From: a virus
Strand: one strand, 5' to 3'
Virus record (IMG/VR): IMGVR_UViG_3300042197_002234
Location: 1 to 64,000 of that record
Length of the DNA: 64,000 bases
Both the position numbers and the translations under genes were made by a program. Below, piece after piece: positions 23,574 to 64,000 of this stretch. The notes beneath the pieces were generated by a model. That model did not search any database and had not been told where the DNA came from. It was given only the letters and a program-made list of their open reading frames with translations. The stretch's first letter is position 1, and every line of letters starts with the position of its first letter.

Positions 23574-24314
23574 TTACGGTGTTGTTACTCCTCTTTTTGA
23601 GACTACTTTGGAACTCATTTCATTTGCAAAAGTCATAGATTTTGGAACATCTTGGGTTTCATAATATTTTAAAATAAAAGAAGCGGTAAATGTATCGCCA
23701 GCACCACTAACATCAATTGTTTCTTTTGGGTTTAGAACTGGATATAAAACTTTATCGTATGTTGAACCTTTAGAACCTAGTGTCGCAATTATATTTTTAA
23801 ATGATGAAAAATTTTTATTATTATTCATTTCATTTTCATTTAATTTTACAAAAGTAAATGACTCTATAATTTCTTCATTTAGTTTTCTCTTGGAATCTAA
23901 AATTGAAAGTTTTGAGTTCTTACCAATAAAAACTAAATCTTCGTCAGTTAAAAATCCTTTGTTGTAATCACTAACTATTACAATATCAAATGAGTTTATA
24001 TATTTACCATCACTAAACTCAATACTGATAGGTTTTATTTTGTACTCACCTTCATCAAGCCTAATAAACATGTGATTACTTTTGGACTCAACAAATCTTG
24101 TTTTAGTTATTTGTTCTGTTTGGAACCAATGTATAATGTCCAAATCTTTAGATAACGATTTTAAATTTTCAACTACGTTGCCCGACATACCACTATTTTC
24201 AATAGTATTCATTGGTTTTAATACAGGTACAGGAGCTTCAGGGCAAACTCTAGTTACTTCAGAATATATAAATCTATCTAAACAAGATTCTCCAATTACT
24301 AATATTTTTATCAT
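23574..24314 (-). CDS. PfkB-family kinase, HldE/RfaE kinase-domain-like (heptose-7-phosphate kinase)
   Basis: VIGESCLDRF...RVCPEAPVPVL (cf. RISPEAPVPV of HldE), VSDYNKGFL, DVSGAGDTF. Confidence 0.85.
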   Translation of the reverse strand: MIKILVIGESCLDRFIYSEVTRVCPEAPVPVLKPMNTIENSGMSGNVVENLKSLSKDLDIIHWFQTEQITKTRFVESKSNHMFIRLDEGEYKIKPISIEFSDGKYINSFDIVIVSDYNKGFLTDEDLVFIGKNSKLSILDSKRKLNEEIIESFTFVKLNENEMNNNKNFSSFKNIIATLGSKGSTYDKVLYPVLNPKETIDVSGAGDTFTASFILKYYETQDVPKSMTFANEMSSKVVSKRGVTTP

Positions 24315-24316
24315 AA

Positions 24317-24709
24317 TTATAAATTATTTTGAGAGTCGCCTTTCCATACTCTATATGAATCAGAATTAAAGTGTTCTGTCGAAACCTCGAAAATAACACC
24401 ATCAGTCAATGCTTCTAATTGATGTGGTTGACCAGGATATTGACGGACGGTATCACCAGGGTTTAAAGTTATTTCATTAACTTCTGCGGTTTCGGTATCA
24501 ATCCATCTATAAATAAAATAACCTTCATTTACATACCAAGTTTCATCTTTAATCATATGGTAGTGCATAGAAAATTTACAACCTTTTTTAAAGTTTAACA
24601 ATTTACCACAATATAATTCATTGTTTTCAAATATAATTTCATGTCCCCACCCTTTTGGAATATTACATTCTTTACACTCAAAGGCATTATAAATTATAGG
24701 TTTTTCCAT
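24317..24709 (-). CDS. Cupin (sugar isomerase-like)
   Basis: KGWGHEI, SMHYHMIKDETWYV, PGQPHQLEA cupin motifs. Confidence 0.8.
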   Translation of the reverse strand: MEKPIIYNAFECKECNIPKGWGHEIIFENNELYCGKLLNFKKGCKFSMHYHMIKDETWYVNEGYFIYRWIDTETAEVNEITLNPGDTVRQYPGQPHQLEALTDGVIFEVSTEHFNSDSYRVWKGDSQNNL

Positions 24710-24743
24710 ACCTAAATTTAATAACCAAAATAAAATAAGTAAA

Positions 24744-25301
24744 TTAAATAGTTGTTGTTGTAGTTGTTACTGGTATTGTTGTGGTAGTCGTAACAGGTGA
24801 TGTTGTTGTAGTTGTTATTGGAATTGTTGTAGTGGTAGATGTACAAGGACAACATTCTGTGGTTGTGGTTGTAGTAAAAGGTCCATTAACACAACATGGA
24901 AACTCGGAAGTATAACAAGCGTTATATTCTAAATCATCAGCAATGAATGATTCTTGTACATTTATTAGTAATTTTTCTCTAATTGGTAATATAAGAACAC
25001 CATCATCGTTTCTAAGCATAAATTGACCTTCATATCTACCAACCCTGTTAGTATCTTTTGGGGTAAACTGATAATAAATGTAATATTCTGGTTCTGCGTT
25101 TGGGTCTAAAAAAGTTTTTTCAACAAATCCTGCAGGTCTTGAACTTATTTTTGGAACGCCAGTTTCAATATCAACCATAGAAAAGAAAATGGCTGATAAT
25201 TCAATAGTTTTCATAAAACTATAATAATCACTTCTACCATCTTTAACTACTTGTAATTTTAATACAGGTAATGTTGCGTTCTTTTTGATGAAAAAATCCA
25301 T
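24744..25301 (-). CDS. BppU-N-like structural protein with a Thr-rich C-terminal tail
   Basis: FFIKKNATLP.LKLQV...YYQFTPKDT..VGRYEGQF, followed by about 40 aa of mostly Thr. Confidence 0.55.
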   Translation of the reverse strand: MDFFIKKNATLPVLKLQVVKDGRSDYYSFMKTIELSAIFFSMVDIETGVPKISSRPAGFVEKTFLDPNAEPEYYIYYQFTPKDTNRVGRYEGQFMLRNDDGVLILPIREKLLINVQESFIADDLEYNACYTSEFPCCVNGPFTTTTTTECCPCTSTTTTIPITTTTTSPVTTTTTIPVTTTTTTI

Positions 25302-25349
25302 TGAATGTTTTTATTCTATAAATACTTTACTTTACAGAAATAAATAATA

Positions 25350-27023
25350 TTAGGACTCTTTTCTTAACTTTCCATCATAATGGTCGAATCTATCGTGTTC
25401 TGTTGGTGTTAATAAAAGTAAACCAGGGTTTAACTCGCCCTTTTTAGTTAATTGATACATATGTGACATCCATGTTTGTTCAAACGGATGAGCCCAAGTA
25501 GTTTCCAAAAACATTTTTTTATTACCTGTTCTTGATACTATCTGAGGCCAATTGCAATAATATATTTCACCTTTAACATATGGTATACCACCATAAGAAT
25601 TAATTGAAGTTATTTTTGTTTTGGGCGCGTTTGGGTCCAACCCTTGTTTTGGTAACATTGGTTTTTCGGGCCAATACTCTTCTCTAATATTTTGAGGTAC
25701 ATTATACCATGACCATTGAGTTGAGTTATCACCATAAAACTCGGTAAAATTTAACTTTAAAAAATCAAAATTATTTTTTTTGGTTATCATTAAACTTTTA
25801 TCGTACAATCCGTCAATATACCTATTAAACCCGTTTTTACATGTTTCACCTTTATTAGGATAAAAAAACATATCGTCTTCAAAAAACAAATAATAATCTA
25901 AGTCTGTTGACTCAAAGTGTTCCGCAATAAATTGTCTACCACCACATATACCTAAATTTTCTTTTTTAATATGTTCAAAACCATATTCTTCACAAATTTT
26001 AGTATATTCATCATTTGTTGATAAATCTGTAGAATTATTTAATAAAAATTTTTTAGTTTTATTAATATAATTTGAATCATACTCCAACATAGATGTGATA
26101 AGAGTTTTGAACTGTTTAGGACTATTAAATGTTATTACATATAACCCCACTTTATTTGGGTCTAAGTTATTTTCAATAACGACAGGACTTTCGTTTTTTA
26201 TTTTTAAATTATCGTTCTTTAAATCTTCAAAAAATTTCCACACCATACCATCACCATTAATATCAAAATAATTTATAATATCTGAATGTTTATAACACAT
26301 TATACTGAATATAGATTCTTCAGTACCCATAAAACCTTCGTCTAATGTTGATGAAAGTAGCCCATAATAAATTGAGTTAATATCTGATACTGTGTTTTTA
26401 GGTCCACCAAAAAAACCACCTCTAGCAACTTTGGTAACTTTTTTACCTGACAGTTCATTTAATTTTTGATAATTAAAACCATGAATTTCTGTATTTGCTT
26501 CATAAGGAAAACAAACAAAAGAAAATTTATTAATATATTTTGGTAGTTTTTCAAAAACTTTATCATGTGTAAAATATCCAGGGTGTACTGTATTTGTTAA
26601 TCCAGCATCAATCCAAAAAAGATATTCTGAATTAAATTTATCAAGAATTTTTGCATCATGTAGTAAAAAAACTTTTGACATAACAAGTGGATTATACATT
26701 TCAAGTTTTGCTTGTGTGGAGTCTTTTAACCACCCTGTTTGATTATACCAAAATTCTTTATTTCTAATAGTCTGAATTTTATTGTAAAATTCATTGTTTT
26801 TAAACCAATTAATATCTCTAACGATAAATTGAGTATTCTCAACATTTCTTTTTTTGAATACAAATTCTTGTAATTCTTTATCACCAAAAATAATCATGTT
26901 ATTTGGTGTATCTAATAACTGATTAAACTTATCTAAATAATGTTGGTATGTTCTTGACCATCCTTCGGATAAATAACCTCTACCAATATCCCATAATCCT
27001 GTAACTAAAGTAACCCCCTTCAT
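25350..27023 (-). CDS. HtrL/YibB (WlaTC)-family glycosyltransferase fused to a GT-A domain
   Basis: TLVTGLWDIGR, YNPLVMSK, FWIDAG and GGFFGG, then a second domain with GGRQFIA and FFEDDM. Confidence 0.75.
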   Translation of the reverse strand: MKGVTLVTGLWDIGRGYLSEGWSRTYQHYLDKFNQLLDTPNNMIIFGDKELQEFVFKKRNVENTQFIVRDINWFKNNEFYNKIQTIRNKEFWYNQTGWLKDSTQAKLEMYNPLVMSKVFLLHDAKILDKFNSEYLFWIDAGLTNTVHPGYFTHDKVFEKLPKYINKFSFVCFPYEANTEIHGFNYQKLNELSGKKVTKVARGGFFGGPKNTVSDINSIYYGLLSSTLDEGFMGTEESIFSIMCYKHSDIINYFDINGDGMVWKFFEDLKNDNLKIKNESPVVIENNLDPNKVGLYVITFNSPKQFKTLITSMLEYDSNYINKTKKFLLNNSTDLSTNDEYTKICEEYGFEHIKKENLGICGGRQFIAEHFESTDLDYYLFFEDDMFFYPNKGETCKNGFNRYIDGLYDKSLMITKKNNFDFLKLNFTEFYGDNSTQWSWYNVPQNIREEYWPEKPMLPKQGLDPNAPKTKITSINSYGGIPYVKGEIYYCNWPQIVSRTGNKKMFLETTWAHPFEQTWMSHMYQLTKKGELNPGLLLLTPTEHDRFDHYDGKLRKES

Positions 27024-28440: not shown

Positions 28441-28441
28441 A

Positions 28442-29689
28442 TTACAAATTACCTGTTATTCTATCACACCAACCTTTTGATTCTGAGTGAGGCCAAACAA
28501 CCCAATATTTTGGTTTATGTGTTGTTTGAAAATCTCTCCAAATTTTACAATAACCATCAGGGTCGGTCTTCATTCTTTTTATTTCATTTTTATCAGCGTC
28601 TTTCCTAAAGATAGTTTCGTCTTTATCGTCATGAAACGCAACCACCCAAAAATCATAGTCATCTTCAGGTACTTGTGAAAAACTTACATCTATACAGTGT
28701 TTGAATATTGATGCAAAACTATTTTCCCACACCTCTTCAGTTTCATATATTGTAGGATTGGGTGGGTAATGTTTGTCTAATGTGTATTGTTGAACGGCTC
28801 TTCTTGAAAACTTTAATCCCGCATAAATTTCATATTCTTTTAAAGTTCTAACAGAACCGAAACCATAAGGACCTTCATGACCTTCTTGAATTTCACCGTC
28901 CATACCAAATAATTTTCTGTTTGTTAAATGAGAGTGGTTATTTTTATTAACCCACTCTTTATCATCATCCCACTGTTTGGTTCTTCCTTTACGAGTATAT
29001 TCATGCCAAATCAAAACTTTATGTGGATGAAACAAATCATAACCCCAAGTGTAAGCACGTACCGCAATAGATATCTCCTCACCATGAAAATAGTATTCAG
29101 GGTTGTGTTGTACTTCTTTACTAAACTGACCTAATGTAAAACAAAAATGAGCAGAATAAAACCTGGCAGGGACAGGTTCTGTCATTTCTTGCCAACCAGG
29201 AATTGTTTCGGGTAAAAAGAAAACAGCCCCTTCGGGAATGAATCTATCAAAAGACATTCTCCAAGGTTCTCTAACTCTACCCTCGGGGTCGTTATCGGGG
29301 TCAAATGAAGAAACATATGCGGTTAATAAAGGTTTCTCAAAACCTTTTTCCTGTAATTGTTTAATCATTTTGATAAATTCAATATCCCACTCTTTTTCAA
29401 ATCGCATGTGGGAGTCTATTTGAAGGGTGTATTCTTCACCATCATATAGTTGTTGTACTTGATTTCTCGCCCAACAAACACCTTTTGATTCTGTGTATAA
29501 AACATCTAAGACTCTAAATCTATCATCATTTTTATATTTGTCTAAGTTGTCAAAACCATCTTCAGGATGATACTGACGACAAATACCAATACGTAAGTTC
29601 TTTGGAAACTTAGCGTATTTTAACATTGATTCAATTGTTGGAATAAGTTGCGGGTCCCTATACGAGGCTATTTGAACAAATATTTTCAT
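28442..29689 (-). CDS. GT60 / Gnt1-like (Skp1-type) polypeptide GlcNAc transferase
   Basis: IFVQIASYRDP, GVCWARN, LQIDSHMRF, FHGEE...RAYTWGYD. Confidence 0.85.
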   Translation of the reverse strand: MKIFVQIASYRDPQLIPTIESMLKYAKFPKNLRIGICRQYHPEDGFDNLDKYKNDDRFRVLDVLYTESKGVCWARNQVQQLYDGEEYTLQIDSHMRFEKEWDIEFIKMIKQLQEKGFEKPLLTAYVSSFDPDNDPEGRVREPWRMSFDRFIPEGAVFFLPETIPGWQEMTEPVPARFYSAHFCFTLGQFSKEVQHNPEYYFHGEEISIAVRAYTWGYDLFHPHKVLIWHEYTRKGRTKQWDDDKEWVNKNNHSHLTNRKLFGMDGEIQEGHEGPYGFGSVRTLKEYEIYAGLKFSRRAVQQYTLDKHYPPNPTIYETEEVWENSFASIFKHCIDVSFSQVPEDDYDFWVVAFHDDKDETIFRKDADKNEIKRMKTDPDGYCKIWRDFQTTHKPKYWVVWPHSESKGWCDRITGNL

Positions 29690-29818
29690 AGACTTTCTTT
29701 TTATTGAAAAATAGATAAAAAAATAAAAAAGTTAAGATTAATAAATCTTGTTTAAAACAAAAATATCCGAATAGATTGAGTTTAATGGACTACTAGAACT
29801 AAATTGGGCAGTAACATC

Positions 29819-30343
29819 TTAAGGTAAACCTGGTGTATTTGATGGTGTTGGGGTCGATGTTGGTGTTAATAAAGGTGGTGGACATGTATTACCGACACAA
29901 GGTAAACCAATACTAATTACTACTTCTGGGTCCGCACTTGGTAATTTACCACAATAATAAACCGACGTGCCTGAATATACCACAGAATACAATATGGTCC
30001 CATCGCATTGAGTTAAACTAAAGTTATAATCAGTCACACCTGTTAAATTATCAAATGTGATACAATTACAATCAACAACCATACTTGGTGTAGGAGTTGG
30101 GGTAAGTGTTGGTGTAGGTGTGGGTGTGACACAGGTATATAATTGAAAGTGTTCACATCCATAAGCATCAACAAGTTTTACTATTAGTTGTTGTATACCT
30201 GATAATGGTGATGGTACATTTACTGTGATAGGTAGTGATGATACTCCTGTAGCAACCAAATAACAATATGTTAATGTTATATCACATATTGTAATACTAA
30301 ATGGCGTTGTTCCAGTAAATGATGTAATTTCAATAGTATACAT
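29819..30343 (-). CDS. Cys-rich virion-type protein with TPTP tracts
   Basis: 174 aa. Its N-terminal domain is paralogous to 50840-51142; it carries two (TP)n tracts. Confidence 0.65.
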   Translation of the reverse strand: MYTIEITSFTGTTPFSITICDITLTYCYLVATGVSSLPITVNVPSPLSGIQQLIVKLVDAYGCEHFQLYTCVTPTPTPTLTPTPTPSMVVDCNCITFDNLTGVTDYNFSLTQCDGTILYSVVYSGTSVYYCGKLPSADPEVVISIGLPCVGNTCPPPLLTPTSTPTPSNTPGLP

Positions 30344-30435
30344 TCCTATAAATATAACACGATACCGTTTACCATAAATAGATAATTAGTTAAACTTGGT
30401 ATGTAATTTTTGTCTTTTTTATTTATTATTCATGT

Positions 30436-31377
30436 ATGAAAAAGGTTTGTTTAAATTTAAGTGAGTCTAACGCTATTGGCGATACCTTATGTTCAACACC
30501 TGTTTTAAGAAAATTGTATCAATCATACAATTCAAAAATCATTGTTGTTACAAAATATCCCGAATTATTTAAACACAATCCTTATGTTGAAAAAGTTTAC
30601 GAATCAAATTCAATTAATTTAGATTATATTAATGAAAATTTTATAACACATAATTCATTTTACGAAAACGGTCAAAAAAATAATCGTGGTGTTGAATATA
30701 AACATAACACAATTGATATTAGACAATATCACGCAATCAAACTTGGTTTCATGTTAACCAAAGATGAAATGGAATTAGATTATATTCCTGACGAATTTGA
30801 ACAAATTAAAAATCTACCCGAAAAATATATTTTAATTCATCCAGTTCAGAATTGGCCAAGTAGAACATGGTCAGCATCTAATTGGATGGAGCTAACTAAA
30901 AGATTAAATGATAACAATATTAATGTTGTATCAGTAGGTAAAGACTCAAGTGAAACAGGATTTTTTAATGTTAAAAAACCAATTTTCAACTTTAAAATTG
31001 ATAAAGGTTTTAATTTGATGAACAAAACTAGTTTAAGTCAAAGTTGGCATCTAATTCAAAAGTCTTCTTGTTTTGTCACTATGGATTCTGGTTTATTACA
31101 TTTAGCGGGAACTACAGATGCTAATATAATACAATTAGGTAGTTCAATAAATCCTGAATTTAGAGCACCATATAGAAATGGTGGACAAACATATAAATAC
31201 CACTACGTTGGTGGTACATGTCCTTTAATGTGTGCTTCTGATATGAAATATGGTGTTAAAGAATGGGGTGACATACAGGGAGTTCCACCATTGATTGGGT
31301 GTTTAGAAGGTAAAAAAACTTTTGAATGTCACCCGTCTGTAGATAAAGTTTTTGAAAAAATAATGGAAATTATATGA
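30436..31377 (+). CDS. GT9-like (heptosyltransferase-like) glycosyltransferase
   Basis: IGDTLCSTP, WSASNWMEL, FVTMDSGLLHLAG. Confidence 0.85.
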   Translation: MKKVCLNLSESNAIGDTLCSTPVLRKLYQSYNSKIIVVTKYPELFKHNPYVEKVYESNSINLDYINENFITHNSFYENGQKNNRGVEYKHNTIDIRQYHAIKLGFMLTKDEMELDYIPDEFEQIKNLPEKYILIHPVQNWPSRTWSASNWMELTKRLNDNNINVVSVGKDSSETGFFNVKKPIFNFKIDKGFNLMNKTSLSQSWHLIQKSSCFVTMDSGLLHLAGTTDANIIQLGSSINPEFRAPYRNGGQTYKYHYVGGTCPLMCASDMKYGVKEWGDIQGVPPLIGCLEGKKTFECHPSVDKVFEKIMEII

Positions 31378-32408
31378 AGATAGGTATTTTATTTTCTGCT
31401 TATAACTCTGAAAAATATATTGATGGGTGTTTAACGCCATGGTTTAATTTAAAAAATGAATTTGACATTGTTATTGGATGTAATAGTGGAATGTATTCCG
31501 ACTATGTTAATTTTGGTATAGAACCTAAAAACAAATCGACCTTAAAAAAATTGGTTGAGTATGATTTGGATTTTTTAATCTCCACAGGTCCTAAATCATT
31601 ATTAGATGAGAATTCTAGTAAAAATTCAGTACTACATGTTTTAAAGAATTCTTGCGATATCATATGGATTTTAGACTCTGATGAATTTTACACTGAAAAT
31701 GAAATTAGAAATATTATAACATATATACAAAGAACCCCTGAATATGATTGGTATACTGTTAATTTTAAAAATTTAACTTTAACCGATAGAATGTTTATGG
31801 ACGGATTTAATCGCCCTAGAATTTTTAGAACAGACAGAAATGGGGGTATTAATGAATTTTATTTTGATAATCATATCACATATAACGATGGTGAGACTTT
31901 TGAATCCAAACCTCACACATCAATACCAAGAACGGTTGCTTGGGTAGCTCATTACTCTTGGTTGAATGGGGATGTTAGGTCTAAAGAAAAAATAACATAT
32001 CAAAATAATAGATTTTTAAATGGTTGCTCTTTTGAGTGGGATAGCGAAAACAACAAGTTAAGATTTTCTAAAGATTTTTATAATAGAGTTAATTTAGATA
32101 TACCAATTTTACATGAAGAAATTGATATTTTTTCTGATGAGTTTACAATTGATTTTAAAAGAAGTGAAAATAAATTTTATGTACAAAACATAGTAAAACC
32201 ACAAACTTTAACATTTAAAATATATGATTGTATTACTGGTGGATTAATATATGAAACAACCATGGAATTAATTCCTCAATATAATTATTTCATTTATCCA
32301 TCACAAAATAACTTTGATAGTGATGAGAATTTTAAAAAATTTAGAGTTGAGGTCTTGAAAGAAAATCAAATAATACATAATGAATTTATACATTTAAAAT
32401 ATGAATAA
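31374..32408 (+). CDS. GT2-like glycosyltransferase
   Basis: SAYNSEKYI and WILDSDEFY (DxD). Confidence 0.75.
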   Translation: MKIGILFSAYNSEKYIDGCLTPWFNLKNEFDIVIGCNSGMYSDYVNFGIEPKNKSTLKKLVEYDLDFLISTGPKSLLDENSSKNSVLHVLKNSCDIIWILDSDEFYTENEIRNIITYIQRTPEYDWYTVNFKNLTLTDRMFMDGFNRPRIFRTDRNGGINEFYFDNHITYNDGETFESKPHTSIPRTVAWVAHYSWLNGDVRSKEKITYQNNRFLNGCSFEWDSENNKLRFSKDFYNRVNLDIPILHEEIDIFSDEFTIDFKRSENKFYVQNIVKPQTLTFKIYDCITGGLIYETTMELIPQYNYFIYPSQNNFDSDENFKKFRVEVLKENQIIHNEFIHLKYE

Positions 32409-33345
32409 TGTTTTTAAAATAGTTAATATAGAACCTGAAGGTAAAATACATTTTGTTTTTTCAGGGGATGAGTCGGAATGTGAAATATCCATAATAGATA
32501 AAAACACAGATTTAGTTGTTCACAAGACAAATATTTGGTTAACCCAAGATGTGACTTACTGGATTTCAACAGGTGAAAAAAATGCTAAAAGATTAAAAAA
32601 TGTGATTTTTAGAGTTAATTACAACGGTAAAAATTATGATGAGGAATTAAATTTTTCTGGTGAGAATAGATTTTTAGTTATTAATTCTGAACAAATAAAA
32701 CTTAACAATTGTGGTGATGATTTATTTCCAATAGTGTGTGAAATATTTTACGATAAAGTTTATGAAAGAGATTTTGTAAAAGTAGGAATTGATGATATAG
32801 TTGTTGATATTGGGGCTAACTATGGAGTTTTTTCATTGTACACTCAAATGTTCAAACCAAAAAAAGTATATTCTGTAGAACCTGTTAGAACCACCTTTAA
32901 ACAAATGAAAAAAAATTTAGACAAATATGGTGTTGTATGTATCAACAAATCAATAAGTTCAGAAAACGGTTATGAGTCTTTTGCTATTACCGATGTTAAT
33001 GGTAATAACTACGCATTGAAAAATATTGATGGGTATCACCCATCGTCTATAAAAAACCAAGAAATTGTTGAGACAACCACAATAAACCAATTAATATCTG
33101 ATTATGATATACCTCACATAAATTTCTTAAAAGTAGATTGTGAAGGTGGTGAGTATGATTTATTTACAACAATAGATAAAGAATATTTAAAAAATAAAAT
33201 ACAGAAAACCGCAATAGAATACCACTCAAGTAATATTAAAGATACTGTGGTTTCAACACTTTTGGAAAACGGGTTTGTTGTTGAAGATATCATAGGTGAA
33301 CCTGAAATAGGATTAATATACGCATACAACAAAAACTTTAATTAA
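32401..33345 (+). CDS. FkbM-family methyltransferase
   Basis: VVDIGANYG, YSVEP, FLKVDCEGGE. Confidence 0.9.
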   Translation: MNNVFKIVNIEPEGKIHFVFSGDESECEISIIDKNTDLVVHKTNIWLTQDVTYWISTGEKNAKRLKNVIFRVNYNGKNYDEELNFSGENRFLVINSEQIKLNNCGDDLFPIVCEIFYDKVYERDFVKVGIDDIVVDIGANYGVFSLYTQMFKPKKVYSVEPVRTTFKQMKKNLDKYGVVCINKSISSENGYESFAITDVNGNNYALKNIDGYHPSSIKNQEIVETTTINQLISDYDIPHINFLKVDCEGGEYDLFTTIDKEYLKNKIQKTAIEYHSSNIKDTVVSTLLENGFVVEDIIGEPEIGLIYAYNKNFN

Positions 33346-33346
33346 T

Positions 33347-36031: not shown

Positions 36032-37011
36032 TGAAAAAATTAATTGTTATTGGGGCTTACCCAAATACACCAAAAAAGAAAGAAGTTTTAGTTGATGAAA
36101 TAAAATCGTTAAAATCTTTAGATTTTGATTTTATGTTGGTCACACATTATCCTACTCCTGTATATATACAGGAAATGTTTGATTACTACATTTATGATAA
36201 AAATCAAACTTTAACACCATTAGATAAAACAACATATTTTTGGTTTAATAGTGGTTCTTTTCTTGTTAGAATAAATAACTCAAGGCACGCTTTACCTATA
36301 AGTCAAAGTATGTTTAACGCTTTTAAATTTTCTGAAATAAAAAACTATGATTTTGTTTATTTTATTGAAAACGATAATTGGTTTTCAGAGAATGATTCTA
36401 AAAAACTTTCTGATTTGGTTACCACTATGTTTGAAAATAACAAAAAATGTATTTTTTTTAAACCTGAAAGTTATAGAGACAATGGTTCTTACGTTTACGA
36501 AACTCAGTTATTTGGAATAACCCCAAAATATTTTAATCAAGTTTTTAATTTACCTATAACAGAAGAAGAGTACTTTTCACATCCAACATATCCCGTTAGT
36601 TTAGAGTTAGGTTTTTATCAAAAACTTTCTGAGTTTGAAGATGATTTTTTAATAATAAATGAACACTCCTATCAATATTTTAATGAAAGTAAAATTAATA
36701 TTTTTAGGGTTGAAAATTTATTAATAGATTTAGTTTATAATAGTAAAAATCCTGCTCAACCTGTTTTGTTTTGTTATGGTAATAGAGTTTTTGACGACTT
36801 ATATAGAGTAATTGTAAGGTTAAATAACATTATAATTAATGATAGAAATTTACATTCAAACAATTGGTTTTATCAAACATTTGATTTGGATGGTAGTAAT
36901 TTGGTTTTTGAAATTTATAACAATGATGTACTACAAGAAAAAAAATCTTATACTTTAGATGAACACTTAATAGATAATTTAAAAGATAAAGGTATAATAG
37001 ATTTTAATTAA
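36031..37011 (+). CDS. Hypothetical glycosylation protein, paralog of the middle domain of the upstream GT
   Basis: LIVIGAYPNT...MLVTHY aligns with LVMIGTYPNT...MLVSHY. Confidence 0.65.
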   Translation: MKKLIVIGAYPNTPKKKEVLVDEIKSLKSLDFDFMLVTHYPTPVYIQEMFDYYIYDKNQTLTPLDKTTYFWFNSGSFLVRINNSRHALPISQSMFNAFKFSEIKNYDFVYFIENDNWFSENDSKKLSDLVTTMFENNKKCIFFKPESYRDNGSYVYETQLFGITPKYFNQVFNLPITEEEYFSHPTYPVSLELGFYQKLSEFEDDFLIINEHSYQYFNESKINIFRVENLLIDLVYNSKNPAQPVLFCYGNRVFDDLYRVIVRLNNIIINDRNLHSNNWFYQTFDLDGSNLVFEIYNNDVLQEKKSYTLDEHLIDNLKDKGIIDFN

Positions 37012-37012
37012 T

Positions 37013-37558: not shown

Positions 37559-37564
37559 TAATTA

Positions 37565-40734: not shown

Positions 40735-40768
40735 AAAAAGGGGGGTTTTAAAACTCCCTTTTTTTATA
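40729..40768. terminator. Bidirectional terminator between the GT operon and the giant repeat gene
   Basis: ATAAAAAAAGGGGGGTTTT/AAAACTCCCTTTTTTTAT inverted repeat with A/T tracts on both sides, between convergent genes. Confidence 0.8.
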
Positions 40769-50795: not shown

Positions 50796-50839
50796 TTTAT
50801 TTTATTCTATAAATATAAAAGGTATTGTTTTTAATGGTA

Positions 50840-51142
50840 TTATTGACCTTCAAATATATAAATATTAGCATCCATGAAAATGAATATCTCACCGTCTTGA
50901 TAAATCTTAGCTTTTTCATCACAATATATAATTCCGAATTTTTCACAACCAATAGAATCAATTAATTTTAACCCCAATGCGGGGGCGGTGTTAAATTGAA
51001 TTGGTAGTGTAATAACTAATGATGGTGGTATTGAGGTGTTTATAGTGGCAATTAAAACACATTGATTTCCATACACATCACACGCGAATAGATTGAATGG
51101 TAATGATACCCCTGTTACTGATGTAATTTCTATTTGAGTCAT
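50840..51142 (-). CDS. Small virion-type protein, paralog of 29819-30343
   Basis: IEITS.TG..PF....CD....C.L.AT...KL.D..GCE is shared between the two. Confidence 0.7.
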   Translation of the reverse strand: MTQIEITSVTGVSLPFNLFACDVYGNQCVLIATINTSIPPSLVITLPIQFNTAPALGLKLIDSIGCEKFGIIYCDEKAKIYQDGEIFIFMDANIYIFEGQ

Positions 51143-51168
51143 ACATCAATAAATACTCAATAATTTAT

Positions 51169-53838: not shown

Positions 53839-53888
53839 CTTTTTTATGATAAATAGTATAAAACGAAGTATTTATTGTTAAAAGCATC

Positions 53889-56582: not shown

Positions 56583-57344
56583 ATGGATGGAAAAACAAGA
56601 AAAAAAATTATTTCAGAATACAAGAAAGGTAAAAGTAGTTTAGATATTGTTAAAATAGTTAAACTATCAAAACCAACAATTCTTAAAGTTTTAAATGAAG
56701 AGGGATTAGTTAGAAAAAGAGATAGGTGTTCTAAATTAAAGATAGATAAGGTTGGTAAGAATTATGTTGTTAATAGAACTTGTCCAAAATGCGGTAAGTT
56801 TATTAAAACAAAATCTAAGGATAAGATAATCGCTTGTAGAAATCATTTTAACAAACTGAATAATTCTTCATTATGTAAACCATGTTCTTTAAAATTACAG
56901 GTGGGTGAGGGAAATCCTTTTTACGGTAAAAAACATACTAAAGATAGTTTGATAAAAATGACTAAAACTTTAACAAATTCACCAAGAAAATTTAGTTCAT
57001 CATCAAAACCTGAAAAAGTTATATATAATATTTTAAAAGAATTAAATTATTCCGTAAAAAAATCATACCGAATTGATAGGTATATTTGTGATATATTCAT
57101 AGAAAAGTTAAATCTAATTATAGAATATAATGGTGATTACTGGCATTGTAATCCAAAAAAATATGACAGAAATTATATACATCCACATAAAAAAAAGACG
57201 GCATATAAAATTTGGGAAGAAGACAATATTAGGATTGATAATTTAAGGAATATGGGTTATACTTTAATTGTTATATGGGAATCGGAATTTGATTCCATTA
57301 ACACAATTAAAAGTATATTAAAAGAATATGACACAAAAGATTAA
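56583..57344 (+). mobile_element. Free-standing homing endonuclease (HTH + Zn ribbon + NUMOD3 + DUF559/Vsr-like nuclease)
   Basis: CPKC...CKPC, GEGNPFYGKKHT (NUMOD3), CDIF...IIEYNGDYWH, GYTLIVIWESE. Confidence 0.8.
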
Positions 57345-58548
57345 CGTATTAGTTCTCCCAAGCGACAAAACTGGGTGTGGTAAGTTTAGGTCCGTAGAAC
57401 CTCACATCTTCTTACAAAATCTTTATCCAAATGATTTTCATGTTGATATAGATTATGAACCAAAAATAAACGATATAAACTATTGGAAGAAATACCAAAT
57501 AGTTCATGTGCATAGAAGTATTGGGAGTAACTATGACGCATCACCAGCAATAATTAAAGGTTTAAAACAATTAGGTATTCAGGTTGTTGTTGATATTGAT
57601 GATTATTGGTTACCCACCAAAGAACATCCAATACATCAATTAATTGTTAAAGAACAAATTGATAAAAAAATTATTGCAAATTTAAAAGAAGCGTCATATG
57701 TAACAACAACTACTAATTTATTTGCCAACGAAATAAAAAAAATAAACAAAAATGTTGTTGTATTTCCAAACGCCATTAATCCAAACGAAGGTCAGTTTAA
57801 TCAAAAAACAGAATCTTCAGATAAGATTAGAGTTGGTTGGTTAGGTGGGTCATCTCACTTACATGATTTAAAACTATTAGAAGGTTTTATATCAAAAAAC
57901 GGTTCAGAATTAAATAACAAATTACAATATGTTATTTGTGGGTTTGATACTAGAGGTGTTGTAACTGAAATAAATCCACAAACAGGAGAACAAAGAAGAA
58001 GAGATATTTTACCACACGAGACCGTATGGGCGAGATACGAAGAAATATTTACAGACAACTACAGAATTGTTGACGATAACTATAAAAATTTCTTACTTCA
58101 ATATAAAGAAGAAGAATATAAGAGTACTGAAGAATTACCTTATGTTCGTGTTTGGACAAAACCAGTTACATCATACGCCATGAACTATTCTAAATTTGAC
58201 ATTTCATTAGCACCTATTAAAAACCACATGTTTAACAGAATGAAATCTCAACTTAAAGTAATTGAAGCTGGTTTCTATAAAAAAGCGTTAATCGCGTCAG
58301 ATATTGGTCCGTATACTATTGATTTAAAACACTGTTTGAAAAATGGTGAATTTGTTGACGGTAATGCGATGTTAGTGTCTGAAAATAGAAATCATAGTGA
58401 TTGGGCTAAATTTATTAAAAGATTAGTTAATAACCCAAACCTAATTACTGACATGGGTGAACGTCTTTACGAAACAGTTAAAAATAAATACGACCTTTCT
58501 ATTGTGTCTAAAAATAGAGCAGAATTTTACAAAACAATAATTAAATAA
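57328..58548 (+). CDS. GT4-like glycosyltransferase
   Basis: DIDDYW, VGWLGGSSHLHDL, DISLAP...FNRMKSQLKVIEAG. Confidence 0.85.
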   Translation: MTQKINVLVLPSDKTGCGKFRSVEPHIFLQNLYPNDFHVDIDYEPKINDINYWKKYQIVHVHRSIGSNYDASPAIIKGLKQLGIQVVVDIDDYWLPTKEHPIHQLIVKEQIDKKIIANLKEASYVTTTTNLFANEIKKINKNVVVFPNAINPNEGQFNQKTESSDKIRVGWLGGSSHLHDLKLLEGFISKNGSELNNKLQYVICGFDTRGVVTEINPQTGEQRRRDILPHETVWARYEEIFTDNYRIVDDNYKNFLLQYKEEEYKSTEELPYVRVWTKPVTSYAMNYSKFDISLAPIKNHMFNRMKSQLKVIEAGFYKKALIASDIGPYTIDLKHCLKNGEFVDGNAMLVSENRNHSDWAKFIKRLVNNPNLITDMGERLYETVKNKYDLSIVSKNRAEFYKTIIK

Positions 58549-58550
58549 TC

Positions 58551-59282: not shown

Positions 59283-59890
59283 TAGATAAATTAAAAGATT
59301 TAGGGTCTTTAAAAGACATGGCCGACAAATTAGAGCAAATGCTTAAAGAAAATAATGCGGATGAGTTAAGTTTAGATAAAATTTACGATGAGTTTGGTTT
59401 AGACATTAAAAAACTTGATGAAGATATGAGGAACTATAAACCTAAACTTTATTTAGGTTTTACAAAACTACATCCTGATGCTTTTACCCCTAAGTACAAC
59501 TATTCATCTGACTCAGGATTTGATTTACATTCAGTTGAGGATGTAACTATAGGTCCTTTTGGTAGAGCTTTGGTACCAACAGGATTATCTTTCGATATTA
59601 AAGACGGGTATGAAATTCAAGTACGCTCAAAAAGCGGTTTAGCGATTAACCAAGGACTCATGGTTTTAAATTCACCAGGTACTGTTGATAACGGGTATAC
59701 TGGTGAAGTAAAAGTTATAGTATTTAATACTAACAATAATGAAGTTAACATAACTAAAGGTATGAAAATTGCTCAAGCCGTTTTATGTCCTGTGGTTAAC
59801 GGTGGATGGGTTGATTTAGAAGAAAACGATACTGTAGAAAACAAAGATAGAGGAAATAAAGGATTTGGTTCAACTGGAATATTTGCATGA
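59279..59890 (+). CDS. dut: dUTPase (trimeric)
   Basis: SGFDL, RSKSGLA, GTVDNGYTGE, KIAQ, RGNKGFGSTG. Confidence 0.97.
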   Translation: MIDKLKDLGSLKDMADKLEQMLKENNADELSLDKIYDEFGLDIKKLDEDMRNYKPKLYLGFTKLHPDAFTPKYNYSSDSGFDLHSVEDVTIGPFGRALVPTGLSFDIKDGYEIQVRSKSGLAINQGLMVLNSPGTVDNGYTGEVKVIVFNTNNNEVNITKGMKIAQAVLCPVVNGGWVDLEENDTVENKDRGNKGFGSTGIFA

Positions 59891-61401
59891 TAACAATAAT
59901 TTACTCAACACACAAAGATGAAAATTACAATAACAAATTTAGACAACATTTGTTAAAAACTGTTGGGTTAAAAAATGTGCAAATATTACAGTATATTAAT
60001 CATAATCAATACAGTTTATCTGAATTATATAATAAAGGAATTGAAGAATCTGAGTTTGATATTGTTGTTTGTTGTCACAATGATATTAAACTTGACAATG
60101 GTTGGGGTAAAAAATTATTTAGGGATTTTGAAAATAACCCTAATTATGCTATTATAGGTAAAGCGGGTTCGTGTTATTTTCCTGAATCAGGAATATATTG
60201 GGAAAGAATGGGTCAGACCATGGTAGGTCAAGTTTATCACCAACCTGAAGGCGTTAAAAAATGGTTGAGTCCTTATTCATCTAAATTTTCGTTTTTGATT
60301 CCTGTTGTCACGATAGATGGTTTATTCATATCTTTTAACAAAACAAAAATTAAACACGGATTTGATGAAACTATTGGTAAGTTTCATTTTTATGACCATC
60401 CATTCTGTTTATCAAATTATTTGGATGGTGTTAATATAGGTGTGACAAGTTCATTTGAAATAACTCACGAATCTGTTGGTAGACCAAATGAAGAGTTTTT
60501 TAAATCAAAAGAAAAATTTTTAGAAAAATACGGTAAAAATTTACCTTTGGATTTACCACCAACAGAAATATACTTTGAGGTTTCAAAAGAAAAACCAATC
60601 AAAAAAATAGGTAAAATAGCGATTATAATACCAACAAAAGGTAAAATTGAAATGTTGTTTGATTGCGTAAACTCATTTTATGAACACTGTAATCCTGAGT
60701 TATTTGATATTTTTATTGCGGATACGGGTTCATCTGAAAGTGAAAAAGAATGGATTAAATCTAATATTCTCAATTTAGGTAATATTAAACTACTCGAGTA
60801 TGATTACTACAATTTTGCAAAAATAAATAATGACGTTGTAAAAAATCATATTGATAACAAATACGAATTTTTATTATTTTGTAATAATGATATTAAAATT
60901 ATTAATAATGTTATTTATGAAATGTTAAAAGTTTACCAAACAAATCATAGAGTAGGCACTGTGGGTGCTAGATTACATTTTAAAAATAATACAGTACAAC
61001 ATAGCGGTATTGTTATATTTTATTCTAATAAAACAAAAGAAATTGGTATTAATCATTTAGGTATAAATTCTTATTATAATTATAATAAGAATGTTAATGA
61101 GGTTATTGGGAATACTGCGGCTCTTTTAATGATTAAGAAATATTTATTTTTAAAATCAGGTATGTTTAATGAAAGTTACATTGGTTGTTTTGAGGATGTC
61201 GAATTAAATTTAAAATGTGTTATTTTGGGATATAAGAATTATTTTGCAGGTAACGCGGTTTCATATCATTATGAATCACAAACAAGAAATGAAGATGATG
61301 AAAATTTAAAAAAACAAAAATATGATTATAATAATGTTTTACTTCCTTTTATAATTGAAAATTTAGAAAAAATAAAAAAAAATATAAAAATAATGAATTA
61401 A
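59887..61401 (+). CDS. Tandem GT2 glycosyltransferase
   Basis: Two GT-A domains (CCHND...FDE..FHFYD and FCNND...FNESY...EDVEL). Confidence 0.85.
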   Translation: MITIIYSTHKDENYNNKFRQHLLKTVGLKNVQILQYINHNQYSLSELYNKGIEESEFDIVVCCHNDIKLDNGWGKKLFRDFENNPNYAIIGKAGSCYFPESGIYWERMGQTMVGQVYHQPEGVKKWLSPYSSKFSFLIPVVTIDGLFISFNKTKIKHGFDETIGKFHFYDHPFCLSNYLDGVNIGVTSSFEITHESVGRPNEEFFKSKEKFLEKYGKNLPLDLPPTEIYFEVSKEKPIKKIGKIAIIIPTKGKIEMLFDCVNSFYEHCNPELFDIFIADTGSSESEKEWIKSNILNLGNIKLLEYDYYNFAKINNDVVKNHIDNKYEFLLFCNNDIKIINNVIYEMLKVYQTNHRVGTVGARLHFKNNTVQHSGIVIFYSNKTKEIGINHLGINSYYNYNKNVNEVIGNTAALLMIKKYLFLKSGMFNESYIGCFEDVELNLKCVILGYKNYFAGNAVSYHYESQTRNEDDENLKKQKYDYNNVLLPFIIENLEKIKKNIKIMN

Positions 61402-61412
61402 TACACAATAAA

Positions 61413-62066
61413 ATGGCACAAGGAGTACACAAAATAACAGAGGACTTTGAGAGGAAGTTGTCTGAGTACACGGGAGCGAAATATGTCGTAACTGTCGATA
61501 ATCAAAGTAATGCACTATTTTTAGCACTGTATTACGAAAATCACATTAAAAATAGTATCGGAGAGAGTGTTATTATACCCTCAAGAACTTACCCATCAGT
61601 ACCTTGCGAAATTATCCATGCAGGACTTGAGGTTAAATTTTACCCTGTTAGTGGTGAAACAATTAAAGGTGCTTATCAGTTATTAGGTAGTAATGTTTAT
61701 GATTCGGCACTTAGATTCACTTCAAATATGTATATACCTGAAACTCATATGTGCGTTTCATTCACTGGTCCATACAAACATTTAAAATTAGGTAAGGGTG
61801 GGGCTATATTAACAGATAGTGAAGATGCTTATAAATGGTTTAAAAAAGCAAGATTTAGTGGTAGAGATGAATGTAGTTATCATGATGATAATTTTGATAT
61901 TAATCCTGTTGTTGGTTGGAATTTCTACATGATGCCAGAAATATCCGCGAGAGGTTTATTATTAATTTCTCAATTTTATGATAGTAATGGGAATCCAAAA
62001 CATAATGAGGATTTAGAATTACCATACCCTGATTTATCAAAATTTCAAATCTATAATTCTAATTAA
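61413..62066 (+). CDS. DegT/DnrJ/EryC1/StrS-type PLP aminotransferase, short form
   Basis: ALFLAL, PSRTYPSV, SFTGPYKHLKLGKGGAILTD, VGWNFYM. Only 217 aa. Confidence 0.8.
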   Translation: MAQGVHKITEDFERKLSEYTGAKYVVTVDNQSNALFLALYYENHIKNSIGESVIIPSRTYPSVPCEIIHAGLEVKFYPVSGETIKGAYQLLGSNVYDSALRFTSNMYIPETHMCVSFTGPYKHLKLGKGGAILTDSEDAYKWFKKARFSGRDECSYHDDNFDINPVVGWNFYMMPEISARGLLLISQFYDSNGNPKHNEDLELPYPDLSKFQIYNSN

Positions 62067-62068
62067 AA

Positions 62069-62194
62069 ATGAAACCAAAAATTTTATGTGTTCTTAATGT
62101 TTTCATGAATTACGAACATTATGAATGGAAAAAAAATAATCAGTGGGTACTTACCGCACATAGAAAAGAGACAAAATTTAATCAAGTGATATGA
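62069..62194 (+). CDS. Possible 41-aa peptide
   Basis: MKPKILCVLNVFMNYEH... fills the gap exactly and its stop overlaps the next ATG. Confidence 0.3.
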   Translation: MKPKILCVLNVFMNYEHYEWKKNNQWVLTAHRKETKFNQVI

Positions 62195-62859
62195 AAGTAG
62201 CGATAATGCAACCTTATTTTTTCCCCTATATTGGATATTTTCAACTAATTAAAAGTGTTGATGTTTATATTAACTTAGACCACGTTTCATTTATGAAACG
62301 CAGTTACATGACAAGAAATGAATTAAAAAATAAAACAAGTATAAATTTGAATGTAACTAAAGGAAGTCAAAATAAAAGTTGTATTGAAACATTTGTTAAT
62401 GTTGATGAAGATTATATTAATAAATTCAAAAAAACTTTATATCATTTATACGGTAAGACATCCCATTATGACGAAATTATAAATGAAATTATTAATCCGT
62501 GTTTTACAGTTGGAAATGTAAATATTTCCACGTTCAATTTGAAAGTATTAAAAAAAATTTGTTCTTTTTTAGAAATAAACACAAAAATTGTTGATTCATC
62601 ATTCGGTATGACAGAAAGAAAAAAAGGTGATGGTATTATCGACATTATAAAGAAATTTAATTCTACCGAATACATTAACGCTATTGGGGGTAAAAAATTA
62701 TACAACAAAGAATACTTTAAAAACAATGGAATTAATTTATATTTTATAGAAATGTTAGACGTAAATTTTGAAAATCCGTATTCATCAATACTTGACTTAT
62801 TATTCACGTACGAAAAAAAACACATAATTCAAAATTTAGACAAGTATAAATTGACATGA
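62191..62859 (+). CDS. wbqC: WbqC-family protein
   Basis: VAIMQPYFFPYIGYFQLI, YINAIGG..LY, SILDLLF. Confidence 0.9.
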   Translation: MKVAIMQPYFFPYIGYFQLIKSVDVYINLDHVSFMKRSYMTRNELKNKTSINLNVTKGSQNKSCIETFVNVDEDYINKFKKTLYHLYGKTSHYDEIINEIINPCFTVGNVNISTFNLKVLKKICSFLEINTKIVDSSFGMTERKKGDGIIDIIKKFNSTEYINAIGGKKLYNKEYFKNNGINLYFIEMLDVNFENPYSSILDLLFTYEKKHIIQNLDKYKLT

Positions 62860-63470
62860 AATATTTGGAAATAGCTAAACATTATCAAGAATGTTTTAAA
62901 AAACACGGTGACAATAATTTTGGTGTTGATTGGCCAAACTTCGAAGATACTTTAACTAGACATCAAATTATGTTTGAAATTACCAAACATACGGACAATA
63001 ATATTTCTTTTTTAGATTTTGGATGTGGTTTAGGACATTTTAAAGAATGGCTAAATAAAAATTCACAGTCAAATATTAACTATTTTGGGTTAGACATTAA
63101 TAAAGACTTTACCGATTTATGTCAAAAAAAATTTCCTGACTCTAAATTTTATTGTAAAGACATTTTAATTGATGACAAAATACCTAATTTTGATTACATT
63201 ATATGTAATGGTACTTTTACAGAAAAAAGAAATTTAACTCAACTTGAAATGATGAGTTATTTTCAAGAAATAATTAAAAAACTATGGAATAAATGTGATA
63301 AAGGGATTTCATTTAATCTTATGTCGAAATACGTAGATTGGGAAAGAGAAGATTTATTTCATGTTTCATTAGATGAACTTAGTTGGTTTTTAACAAAAAA
63401 TTTATCAAGAAATTTTGTATATAGAAACGACTATAAATTATACGAATTTACAACATATGTCTATAAATAA
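62856..63470 (+). CDS. Class I SAM methyltransferase
   Basis: FLDFGCGLG, YFGLDI, FDYIICNGTF. Confidence 0.9.
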   Translation: MKYLEIAKHYQECFKKHGDNNFGVDWPNFEDTLTRHQIMFEITKHTDNNISFLDFGCGLGHFKEWLNKNSQSNINYFGLDINKDFTDLCQKKFPDSKFYCKDILIDDKIPNFDYIICNGTFTEKRNLTQLEMMSYFQEIIKKLWNKCDKGISFNLMSKYVDWEREDLFHVSLDELSWFLTKNLSRNFVYRNDYKLYEFTTYVYK

Positions 63471-64000
63471 AAAAGTAATAATTTTTGGAGTTAAAGATTT
63501 GGCCGAATTAGCACATTATTATTTAACAAATGACAGCGATTATGAAGTCATTGCATTCACAATAAATAAAAGTTATTTAAATTCAACAATATTTATCCCA
63601 AAAGGGTCGGATACTGAATATCCTGTTGTTGAATTTGAAACCATCGAAAAAATTTATCCTCCAACTGAATATAGTTTATTTGCACCAATGACAGGTGTAA
63701 ATATGAACCAATCAAGAAAAAAAATATTTGAAGATGGTAAAAGTAAAGGGTACCAGTTTATATCTTATATTTCATCAAAATCGACCAGTTTTAATAATAA
63801 AATAGGTGAAAATTGTTTTATATTAGAAGATAATACTTTACAACCTTTTACAGAAATTGGTAATAATGTTGTTATGTGGAGCGGTAATCACATTGGTCAC
63901 CATGGTAAAATTGAAGACCATGTTTTTTTCACATCCCATGTCGTGTTATCAGGTCATTGTCACGTTAAAGAAAGAGCTTGGTTTGGTGTCAATTCTACAA
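63457..64000 (+). CDS. NeuD/PglD-like hexapeptide acetyltransferase (truncated by the window end)
   Basis: Not in the track. Hand-translated MSINKKVIIFGVKDLAELAHYYL...IGENCFILEDNTLQPFTEIGNNVVMWSGNHIGHHGKIEDH. Confidence 0.85.
   Translation, partial: MSINKKVIIFGVKDLAELAHYYLTNDSDYEVIAFTINKSYLNSTIFIPKGSDTEYPVVEFETIEKIYPPTEYSLFAPMTGVNMNQSRKKIFEDGKSKGYQFISYISSKSTSFNNKIGENCFILEDNTLQPFTEIGNNVVMWSGNHIGHHGKIEDHVFFTSHVVLSGHCHVKERAWFGVNST

Follow-up and report, generated by a model that had tools for sequence, protein, structure and literature searches.

Thr-rich Gly-X-Y proteins with O-linked sugars form a hair-like surface layer on the Bacillus anthracis exosporium, where the protein is BclA, and on Mimivirus, whose fibrils contain collagen-like proteins, and in Dictyostelium the glycosyltransferase Gnt1, a member of family GT60, modifies a hydroxyproline of Skp1. 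Another GT60 enzyme adds alpha-linked N-acetylglucosamine (GlcNAc) to Thr of the Thr-rich mucins of Trypanosoma cruzi (PMC3769586), and in Escherichia coli the TibC-TibA and Aah-AIDA-I systems combine a soluble cytoplasmic enzyme with the adjoining gene of a long, repetitive, Ser/Gly-rich protein offering many sites (PMC4358343). Among phages, O-glycosylation of the mycobacteriophage virion was shown experimentally by Freeman et al. 2023, according to papers that cite that work (PMC12619734, PMC11256854); as described there, phage glycosyltransferases modify the phage's own structural proteins, at the C-termini of capsid and tail-tube proteins, and give the particle a glycan coat. Here we analyze a glycosylation gene cluster in the first 64 kb (64,000 nucleotides, hereafter the window) of IMG/VR virus record IMGVR_UViG_3300042197_002234, a single linear contig of 195,527 bp with 31.6% G+C. 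CheckV puts its completeness at an estimated 65%, which makes it part of a phage genome of about 300 kb. The cluster holds a TibC/Aah-type enzyme and a GT60 enzyme, each beside a candidate acceptor: virion glycosylation is already known, and what is added is the presence of both pairings in one lineage, each enzyme with its own neighbor. The initial annotation of this DNA had assumed that phage glycosyltransferases usually modify DNA or host O-antigen, a view rendered outdated by the mycobacteriophage virion glycosylation reported in PMC12619734.

The phage TibC-type enzyme shares with TibC and Aah its family, the catalytic Asp, the Thr/Lys pair, the Trp and the four iron-finger Cys, is likewise predicted to be soluble, and mirrors tibC-tibA and aah-aidA in the position of its gene next to that of a long repetitive protein. 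It departs from them in that the neighbor is a proline-poor phage Gly-X-Y protein and not the beta-helix of an autotransporter passenger, in that it is fused to a GT4 domain and its gene has further transferase and methyltransferase genes around it, an arrangement suggestive of sugar chains in place of single heptoses, and in that no ADP-heptose pathway was found on the phage side beyond a kinase-like gene. The residue equivalent to TibC Arg-286 is also replaced, and the match to TibC covers its N-terminal beta-barrel only partly. The GT60 enzyme has the same PF11397 domain and predicted solubility as the protist enzymes of CAZy family GT60, and the Thr-rich, mucin-like tracts of its phage neighbors resemble the T. 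cruzi mucin acceptors (PMC3769586), but it belongs to a bacterial virus, its candidate acceptors are tail- or fiber-like, and a PhyH-like oxygenase gene lies 35 kb off, outside the window. Compared with the mycobacteriophages, as far as the citing papers describe them, the enzyme families, acceptors and hosts are different and the transferases far more numerous, and the system here is a predicted one; a giant collagen-like fiber, a baseplate-anchor-like protein and linker tracts take the place of capsid and tail-tube C-termini as candidate acceptors. Unlike BclA and the Mimivirus proteins, the phage protein has Gly-Thr/Ser-Ser repeats in which Pro is nearly absent, and the priming enzyme is of a different family.

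Our preferred explanation, to which the sequence comparisons lead us to assign a probability of about 0.55, is that some of the phage's virion proteins receive glycans from phage enzymes while still in the host cytoplasm, ahead of assembly, by way of at least two priming routes. In the fiber route, the TibC/Aah-type domain would place a first sugar on Ser, and perhaps Thr, of a 3343-residue fiber, and the fused GT4 domain together with neighboring transferases and methyltransferases may extend and cap it. In the tract route, the GT60 enzyme would place a first sugar, GlcNAc by family, on Thr of poly-Thr or Thr-Pro (TP) tracts in proteins of 174 and 185 residues, and perhaps also in an insertion of the tail sheath and in an 889-residue protein. 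We infer the role of the neighbors as acceptors, the sugars used, the participation of the other ~10 transferases in the same glycans and the biological function, which might be protease protection, fiber stiffening or adhesion; shielding, buoyancy and capsule mimicry are pure speculation. The dual-pathway system proposed in the initial annotation holds up insofar as both enzymes come from protein-glycosylating families and each lies beside a plausible acceptor, and has to be given up in respect of its donor supply and its shared sequence motif, as set out below.

The candidate Ser-priming enzyme is a 701-residue fusion (38252-40357, plus strand) of an N-terminal GT4 domain with a domain of the TibC/Aah type (bacterial autotransporter heptosyltransferase, BAHT) at residues ~371-698. 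Residues 371-693 align with TibC residues 44-380 (PDB 4RB4/4RAP) at E 1e-49, and residues 372-698 match TIGR04414, the Aah/TibC equivalog, over profile positions 31-373 of 374 with 286.6 bits against a cut-off of 200, which bears out the TibC-like assignment first made from the sequence. The alignment starts at TibC residue 44, with the GT4 domain upstream, and the TibC beta-barrel comprises residues 1-97; TibC itself assembles into a ring dodecamer. We compared key residues in an alignment of 75 distinct phage homologues, taking their roles from the TibC study (PMC4358343): the catalytic base Asp-110 (here D436) and Lys-230 (K552) are kept in 75/75, Thr-226 (T548), which with Lys-230 ligates the beta-phosphate, in 73/75, and Trp-305 (W617), a ligand of the heptose O4, in 74/75, while the iron-finger residues Cys-339, Cys-342, Cys-358 and Cys-370 (C652, C655, C671 and C683) are invariant. 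At the position of Pro-300, where Pro makes TibC selective for D,D-heptose (PMC4358343), the phage protein has Ser, as does Aah. By these comparisons we regard the domain as a true member of the family in its predicted fold and chemistry.

The neighboring gene (40764-50795, minus strand), convergent (tail-to-tail) with that of the fusion, encodes the 3343-residue protein, by composition a proline-poor 'collagen-like' protein and the candidate acceptor of the TibC-type enzyme. It contains 983 Gly-X-Y triplets, 926 of them in the longest run, in which X is Thr (480) or Ser (473) and Y is mostly Ser (883) or Asp (65); these counts agree with the Gly-X-Y fiber noted in the initial annotation. The repeats lie between a 53-residue N-terminal head and a C-terminal domain of ~200 residues, are interrupted for ~120 residues at 2911-3031, and are accompanied by no signal peptide or membrane segment. 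Searches of Pfam, PHROGs and NCBIfam returned nothing for the N-terminal end, the C-terminal end or the 2911-3031 stretch, and the C-terminal domain has one distant IMG/VR relative at 32% identity. The Pro/Hyp or charged stabilizing pairs of a collagen triple helix are lacking, with 17 Pro in 3343 residues and X and Y positions filled nearly only by Thr, Ser and Asp. If the protein were triple-helical, the fiber might measure up to ~0.8 micrometer (983 triplets at ~0.29 nm per residue).

To establish how far enzyme and fiber genes travel together, we collected at least 101 IMG/VR relatives of the TibC-type gene at 50-86% identity. Downstream flank of 3 kb or more was available for 63 related loci, of which 42 have an open reading frame (ORF) of Gly-[Thr/Ser]-Ser (G-[TS]-S) repeats that starts no more than 6 kb downstream, with X always Thr or Ser, Y always Ser and a length of 228-3122 residues; in the upstream flanks such an ORF occurs in only 3 TibC loci. 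In the converse, repeat-first search, for which at least eight consecutive matches to the codon pattern GGN-WSN-WSN were required, a TibC-type gene was found in 12 of the 44 searchable IMG/VR records with the repeat, and in 10 of these its score exceeds the cut-off. A complete 66-kb phage (G043) that has terminal repeats is among these records, as are phages of 170 kb and 299 kb and a 73-kb record in which the surroundings of the enzyme gene have 55% G+C; taken together, the records with TibC-type genes range from 66 to 735 kb, and the stretches in which these genes lie have 30-55% GC. Where the two genes adjoin, they are either convergent or on the same strand, with the fiber gene beginning 2 nt after the enzyme gene, and in the 735-kb phage LR756501 they are 5 kb apart. 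In Mel-JY01, a Microcystis phage in culture, 1.7 kb separate the TibC-type gene, which encodes a 1227-residue GT4-methyltransferase-TibC fusion, from a G-[TS]-S ORF of 1016 residues or more. In four near-complete relatives, both elements are present in two, both are absent from one, and the remaining one has the repeat at a contig end. Persistence of a gene pair through changes of order, orientation, genome size and base composition would be expected of an enzyme and its substrate, and the pairing of TibC-type and G-[TS]-S genes across varied phage backgrounds is, at the level of sequence comparison, the best-supported part of our reading. The profiling proposed with the initial annotation thus gave co-occurrence of TibC-like and repeat genes in many unrelated phage backgrounds and several gene orders, and our literature search found no link between TibC-type or GT60 enzymes and phage proteins.

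The repeat genes have consequences for the records that contain them. Two near-complete relatives start or end within G-[TS]-S repeats (G046 at 57-1324 and 294786-294910; G048 at 219081-219475); such genes break assemblies, and presence/absence counts from metagenomic contigs are therefore biased downwards. The Mel-JY01 record (PP395634.1) is linearized within its plus-strand G-[TS]-S ORF (1-3052), for which the depositors annotated minus-strand 'hypothetical proteins' that result from reading the opposite strand and are rich in Pro, Val and Glu; at 9152-9986, a further short G-[TS]-S ORF looks frameshifted or mis-called. As that record shows, genes of this kind are readily called on the wrong strand.

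The candidate Thr-priming enzyme of the second route is a 415-residue GT60-family glycosyltransferase (28442-29689, minus strand) that matches PF11397 with 224.8 bits against a cut-off of 21 (E 2.8e-66; best stretch residues 55-294, profile positions 96-350 of 352), as the initial annotation had anticipated. Its gene is among the best-conserved of the lineage, with 258 IMG/VR stretches at 74-81% identity, and has homologues in Xanthomonas and Stenotrophomonas jumbo phages at 46-50% identity; a profile search for distant relatives returned the same lineage only, again at 74-81%. In the minus-strand row the gene of the 174-residue TP protein comes first, GT60 second and the gene of the 185-residue poly-Thr protein further down. 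Within this one lineage, to which the linkage evidence is confined, the adjacency is conserved: the ORF directly upstream of GT60, 200-2648 residues long, carries a Thr or TP tract in 51/72 loci, compared with 69/787 other ORFs, and at least one tract ORF lies within 8 kb in 77/80 GT60 loci. Downstream of GT60, an HtrL-like gene is present in 71/80 loci and the 185-residue gene in 60/80. In Xanthomonas phage XacN1 (AP018399.1, 7371-17312) the order PolB, GT60, GT9, giant protein, with other genes between them, is the same as here; the giant protein, ORF325, has 3313 residues, is encoded beside baseplate wedge genes and 9 kb from GT60, and carries TP tracts near its C-terminal end and no Gly-X-Y repeats.

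The tracts that the initial annotation had listed in the sheath and in the 185-, 174- and 889-residue proteins are all present, and across the whole contig tracts occur additionally in a 375-residue structural-like protein at its far end and weakly in two others. The 174-residue protein (29819-30343, minus strand), a candidate GT60 acceptor, reads as two small Cys-containing beta-sandwich domains with a TP linker between them and a TP tail, and in an AlphaFold2 (AF2) model (pLDDT 79) the linker is disordered. In the alignment of its family, linker residues Thr77, Thr79, Thr81 and Thr83 are invariant at a mean identity of 57%, which suggests more constraint than a mere spacer needs. The 185-residue protein (24744-25301, minus strand), also a candidate acceptor, has a conserved N-terminal domain of ~135 residues followed by a poly-Thr tail; the domain is retained at 54-90% identity in 60/80 related loci, with variable Thr or TP tails and added C-terminal domains. 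Its AF2 model (pLDDT 79) is an Ig-like sandwich whose viral and PDB neighbors include BppU_N, baseplate components and minor tail proteins, which makes it probably a virion protein and one that, by the model, is probably anchored at the baseplate or fiber; a profile of the family gave nothing significant against PDB sequences. In some relatives the N-terminal domain is fused to a papain-like peptidase C-terminal domain (367 residues), and in others Asp/Asn-rich repeats replace the Thr tracts, a pattern in which the domain acts as an anchor for varied displayed modules. The tail sheath (9154-12489, minus strand; 1111 residues; PF04984/PF17482; phrog_23 E 7e-56), a further candidate acceptor, carries its poly-Thr/TP tract in an insertion at residues 284-319, and a tract is found at the same place in 56/65 distinct homologues while its sequence drifts among poly-Thr, TP and poly-Pro. 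Upstream of the fiber gene and on the same strand, 50840-53838 (minus strand) encodes the Cys-rich 889-residue protein, with four TP tracts, and a 100-residue ORF. A LamG-like domain in the 889-residue protein is a lead only (atlas scores 0.84-0.85; BLASTP E 0.011 against the contig's own LamG protein), and a tblastn search of 50,697 phage records with this protein and with the 185-residue N-terminal domain gave no match.

In a hydropathy scan of the proteins encoded from 23.5 to 71.5 kb of the contig, none had a membrane segment, and over the same range of this only ~65% complete contig neither an initiating phosphoglycosyl transferase nor a flippase, polymerase, ligase or Gtr-type membrane protein was found, which makes a lipid-linked polysaccharide pathway with borrowed host membrane parts less likely. 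The enzymes and candidate acceptors are all predicted to be soluble, which fits modification in the cytoplasm before assembly, as for TibC and Dictyostelium Gnt1.

Several observations weigh against phage-directed glycosylation of the virion. TibC Arg-286, which contacts adenine N1 and gives specificity for ADP-sugars (PMC4358343), corresponds in the pairwise alignment with the TibC structure to Thr598, and among the 75 homologues this position is Thr in 50, Val in 13 and Arg in only 4; use of ADP-heptose is therefore not assured, and the donor of the 701-residue enzyme would be a heptose by family, with an uncertain nucleotide part. The donor supply claimed in the initial annotation proved not to be self-sufficient: no gmhA, rfaE domain II or cytidylyltransferase-like gene was found on the contig (~65% complete), gmhA is absent from five near-complete relatives, and the heptose-1-phosphate adenylyltransferase is represented there by one weak domain-II match in one of the five; the phage therefore cannot make ADP-heptose alone. 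A complete phage-encoded ADP-heptose pathway was looked for and not found, the kinase-like gene being the only component present. With respect to the pairing, five of the nine repeat-bearing records that are at least 80% complete have no TibC-type gene, 21/63 TibC loci have no G-[TS]-S ORF within 6 kb, and LR756504 has a TibC-type gene and no repeat by the strict pattern, from which it follows that the fiber does not strictly need the enzyme and that the enzyme may have other acceptors; moreover, a single large lineage supplies most of the co-occurrence data, which lack phylogenetic independence. For the tract route, GT60 is retained in a relative whose sheath and 185-residue homologue both have no tract, the XacN1 GT60 gene lies next to a carbamoyltransferase instead of a TP protein, and TP tracts are ordinary interdomain linkers for which glycosylation is not required. 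The HtrL/YibB, GT9 and WbqC/DegT/NeuD genes are of types typical of lipopolysaccharide (LPS) or O-antigen loci.

On that last point rests a rival account that has the transferases alter the surface of the infected host (LPS core, O-antigen or capsule), so that, for instance, superinfection or the adsorption of progeny is prevented, and takes the tracts and repeats to be unglycosylated linkers and spacers of fiber proteins encoded in the same variable host-recognition region. The matches of GT9 to LPS heptosyltransferases I/II, the rfaE-like kinase and the existence of G-[TS]-S fibers without TibC-type genes add to it, and pelagimyophages also combine glycosyltransferases and rfaE with tail-fiber genes, which has been read as host O-chain modification (PMC7029224). 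We consider this account doubtful, since it leaves unexplained why the two best-conserved enzymes should come from protein-glycosylating families, why TibC-type and G-[TS]-S genes should stay together in different orders across unrelated phages, and why the linker Thr of the 174-residue family are invariant, and since no membrane components or membrane segments were found between 23.5 and 71.5 kb. A narrower account would accept only the TibC-type/fiber pair as an enzyme-substrate module and assign unrelated tasks to GT60 and most of the remaining transferases, such as the glycosylation of phage DNA or of a non-virion protein from phage or host, with no single 'glycocalyx'. The transferase genes are indeed interspersed with those of PolB, an exonuclease, dUTPase, PhoH and a homing endonuclease, GT60 persists in the tract-less relative and beside a carbamoyltransferase in XacN1, and a thymidylate-synthase-family gene elsewhere on the contig (162795-163988, minus strand) leaves base modification possible. 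Set against this, GT60 follows a TP-tract ORF in 51/72 loci and has a tract ORF within 8 kb in 77/80, and to our knowledge no characterized GT60 member acts on DNA, so that we regard the narrower account as unlikely. The full length of the ordinary ThyA profile, 266 positions, is covered by the thymidylate-synthase-family protein with 327 bits, which suggests plain thymidylate synthesis; as the protein has ~400 residues, an insertion of ~130 residues is implied. DNA glycosylation is unlikely for the TibC-type and GT60 families and possible for other transferases among the replication genes.

Beyond glycosylation of some virion proteins, our preferred reading could be extended, tentatively and at less than even odds, to two independent cytoplasmic O-glycosylation pathways acting on the phage's own particle in large freshwater phages of Bacteroidota-type hosts. 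One, of the TibC type, would yield a glycan-stabilized, Pro-free Gly-Thr/Ser-Ser fiber and the other a GT60-dependent mucin-type coat on the Thr/Pro stalks of tail, baseplate and sheath, which would together be a prokaryotic-virus counterpart of giant-virus fibrils and include the first GT60 mucin-type system outside eukaryotes.

The whole cluster spans 23.5-64 kb of the window and runs on to ~70.7 kb of the contig, comprising ~12 glycosyltransferase genes, three methyltransferases, a heptose-kinase-like gene and an amino-sugar module; the transferase genes are interleaved with those of the Thr/TP-tract proteins and the 3343-residue protein, the candidate acceptor genes thus lying within the transferase gene rows. 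At its left end are a shortened PfkB-family kinase of 246 residues that resembles heptose-7-phosphate kinases (23574-24314, minus strand; PF00294 E 1e-12), a 130-residue cupin (24317-24709, minus strand; PF07883 E 4e-7, with a weak WbuC-cupin match) that is possibly a sugar isomerase or epimerase, and a 557-residue putative glycosyltransferase whose N-terminal half resembles HtrL/YibB (25350-27023, minus strand; PF09612 E 2.6e-19), a family that originates from LPS-core loci. The heptose kinase of the initial annotation is substantiated in that the best NCBIfam match of the PfkB protein is rfaE_dom_I, the heptose-7-phosphate kinase domain of HldE, yet at 114 bits against a cut-off of 345. A tightly packed plus-strand row (30436-40734), identified by Pfam matches and with ORF ends that overlap or abut, encodes in its first part a GT9 protein (313 residues; best NCBIfam matches LPS heptosyltransferases I/II), a GT2-like protein (344), an FkbM methyltransferase (314) and a GT4-containing protein (894), and in its second part a 326-residue protein without assignment, a methyltransferase (181), a GT2-like protein (228), the 701-residue fusion and a DUF6165 protein (126). 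Matches to the 894-residue protein occur in 73/80 TibC loci and DUF6165 homologues in 36/80.

In the right-hand part of the cluster, an HNH/NUMOD3-type homing-endonuclease-like gene (56583-57344) lies within a plus-strand row directly before the gene of a 406-residue GT-B-like protein (57328-58548, plus strand), whose PF13692 match is sub-threshold (E 0.0021, 18.7 bits against a cut-off of 27). It is followed by a 504-residue double GT-A protein that joins a Glyco_tranf_2_5 and a GT2 domain (59887-61401, plus strand; PF13712 E 5e-18, PF00535 E 3e-9) and by the amino-sugar module noted in the initial annotation (61413-64000, plus strand), which consists of a short DegT-type aminotransferase (PF01041), a WbqC-like protein (PF08889, 156.5 bits), a 204-residue methyltransferase (PF08242) and a NeuD/PglB/VioB-type acetyltransferase (TIGR03570, 140 bits against a cut-off of 160.8), whose gene extends past the window to contig position 64137. 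The aminotransferase (61413-62066) has 217 residues where ~360-370 are usual, and since the gap to the next gene is too small for the missing part, it may be truncated or inactive. Past the window end the cluster continues with three further transferases and a PhyH-like 2OG-Fe(II) oxygenase (contig 65025-65759), which could by sequence be a protein or sugar hydroxylase and is of interest because the Dictyostelium GT60 enzyme works on hydroxyproline. No Pfam, PHROGs or NCBIfam match was obtained for the proteins of 185, 174, 889, 100, 248, 326 and 282 residues. The count of about ten further glycosyltransferases given in the initial annotation is reached only if sub-threshold Pfam matches and the three genes beyond the window are included, and of its four methyltransferases Pfam supports three in the window. 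That all the transferases serve one 'glycocalyx' would be a further step, and it is quite possible that only some of the ~12 belong to protein glycosylation.

The motif TATTTAT, which the initial annotation had taken to be shared by the genes of the system, occurs 52 times in the window against an expectation of 42.8 ± 6.1, within chance. Its positions peak at -11 to -30 from start codons, and it precedes 79/241 genes contig-wide, including small genes unrelated to glycosylation; it is a general promoter or leader element. As a marker of the system the motif was rejected, as it precedes a third of the contig's genes. In the form [A/G]TATTTAT[A/T] the element can be sorted by its distance from the ATG into three classes, at about -11/-12, -20 to -30 and -40 to -46, with examples in the window at 12523-12533, 25318-25346, 30348-30426, 50809-50815 and 53849-53875, and the -11 class could represent leaderless or very short-leader mRNAs.

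Pfam and PHROGs matches to a tail sheath, a tube-like protein, a T4-type baseplate protein and a family-B DNA polymerase (PolB) identify the source phage as a myovirus. Its closest cultured sheath is that of Mel-JY01, at 32% identity. Near-identical DNA is present in freshwater, lake, lagoon and wetland metagenomes from at least 10 studies besides the likely source, and TibC-type genes with 52-58% identity lie on contigs binned with metagenome-assembled genomes of Sediminibacterium and 'Bacteroides', a weak pointer to a Bacteroidota-type host. Elsewhere in the window, 17691-19229 encodes a 512-residue protein whose first ~230 residues form a complete Fe/Mn superoxide dismutase and whose C-terminal half has no assignment, and an ORF of more than 1552 residues (1-4656, minus strand), open at the window start and adjoining the baseplate and tube genes, has a weak, sub-threshold OmpA-like peptidoglycan-binding domain at residues ~893-953 (23.3 bits against a cut-off of 27.2).

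If our preferred reading is true, glycosylation of the virion would be a common trait of abundant freshwater phages and not a mycobacteriophage curiosity, and it would explain the many glycosyltransferases in the fiber modules of aquatic myophages, hitherto read as agents of host O-antigen modification (PMC7029224). The TibC/Aah family would gain a second, non-autotransporter class of substrates and the protist GT60 family a prokaryotic-virus branch, and the presence of the TibC-type/fiber pair in the cultured phage Mel-JY01 makes the fiber route directly testable.

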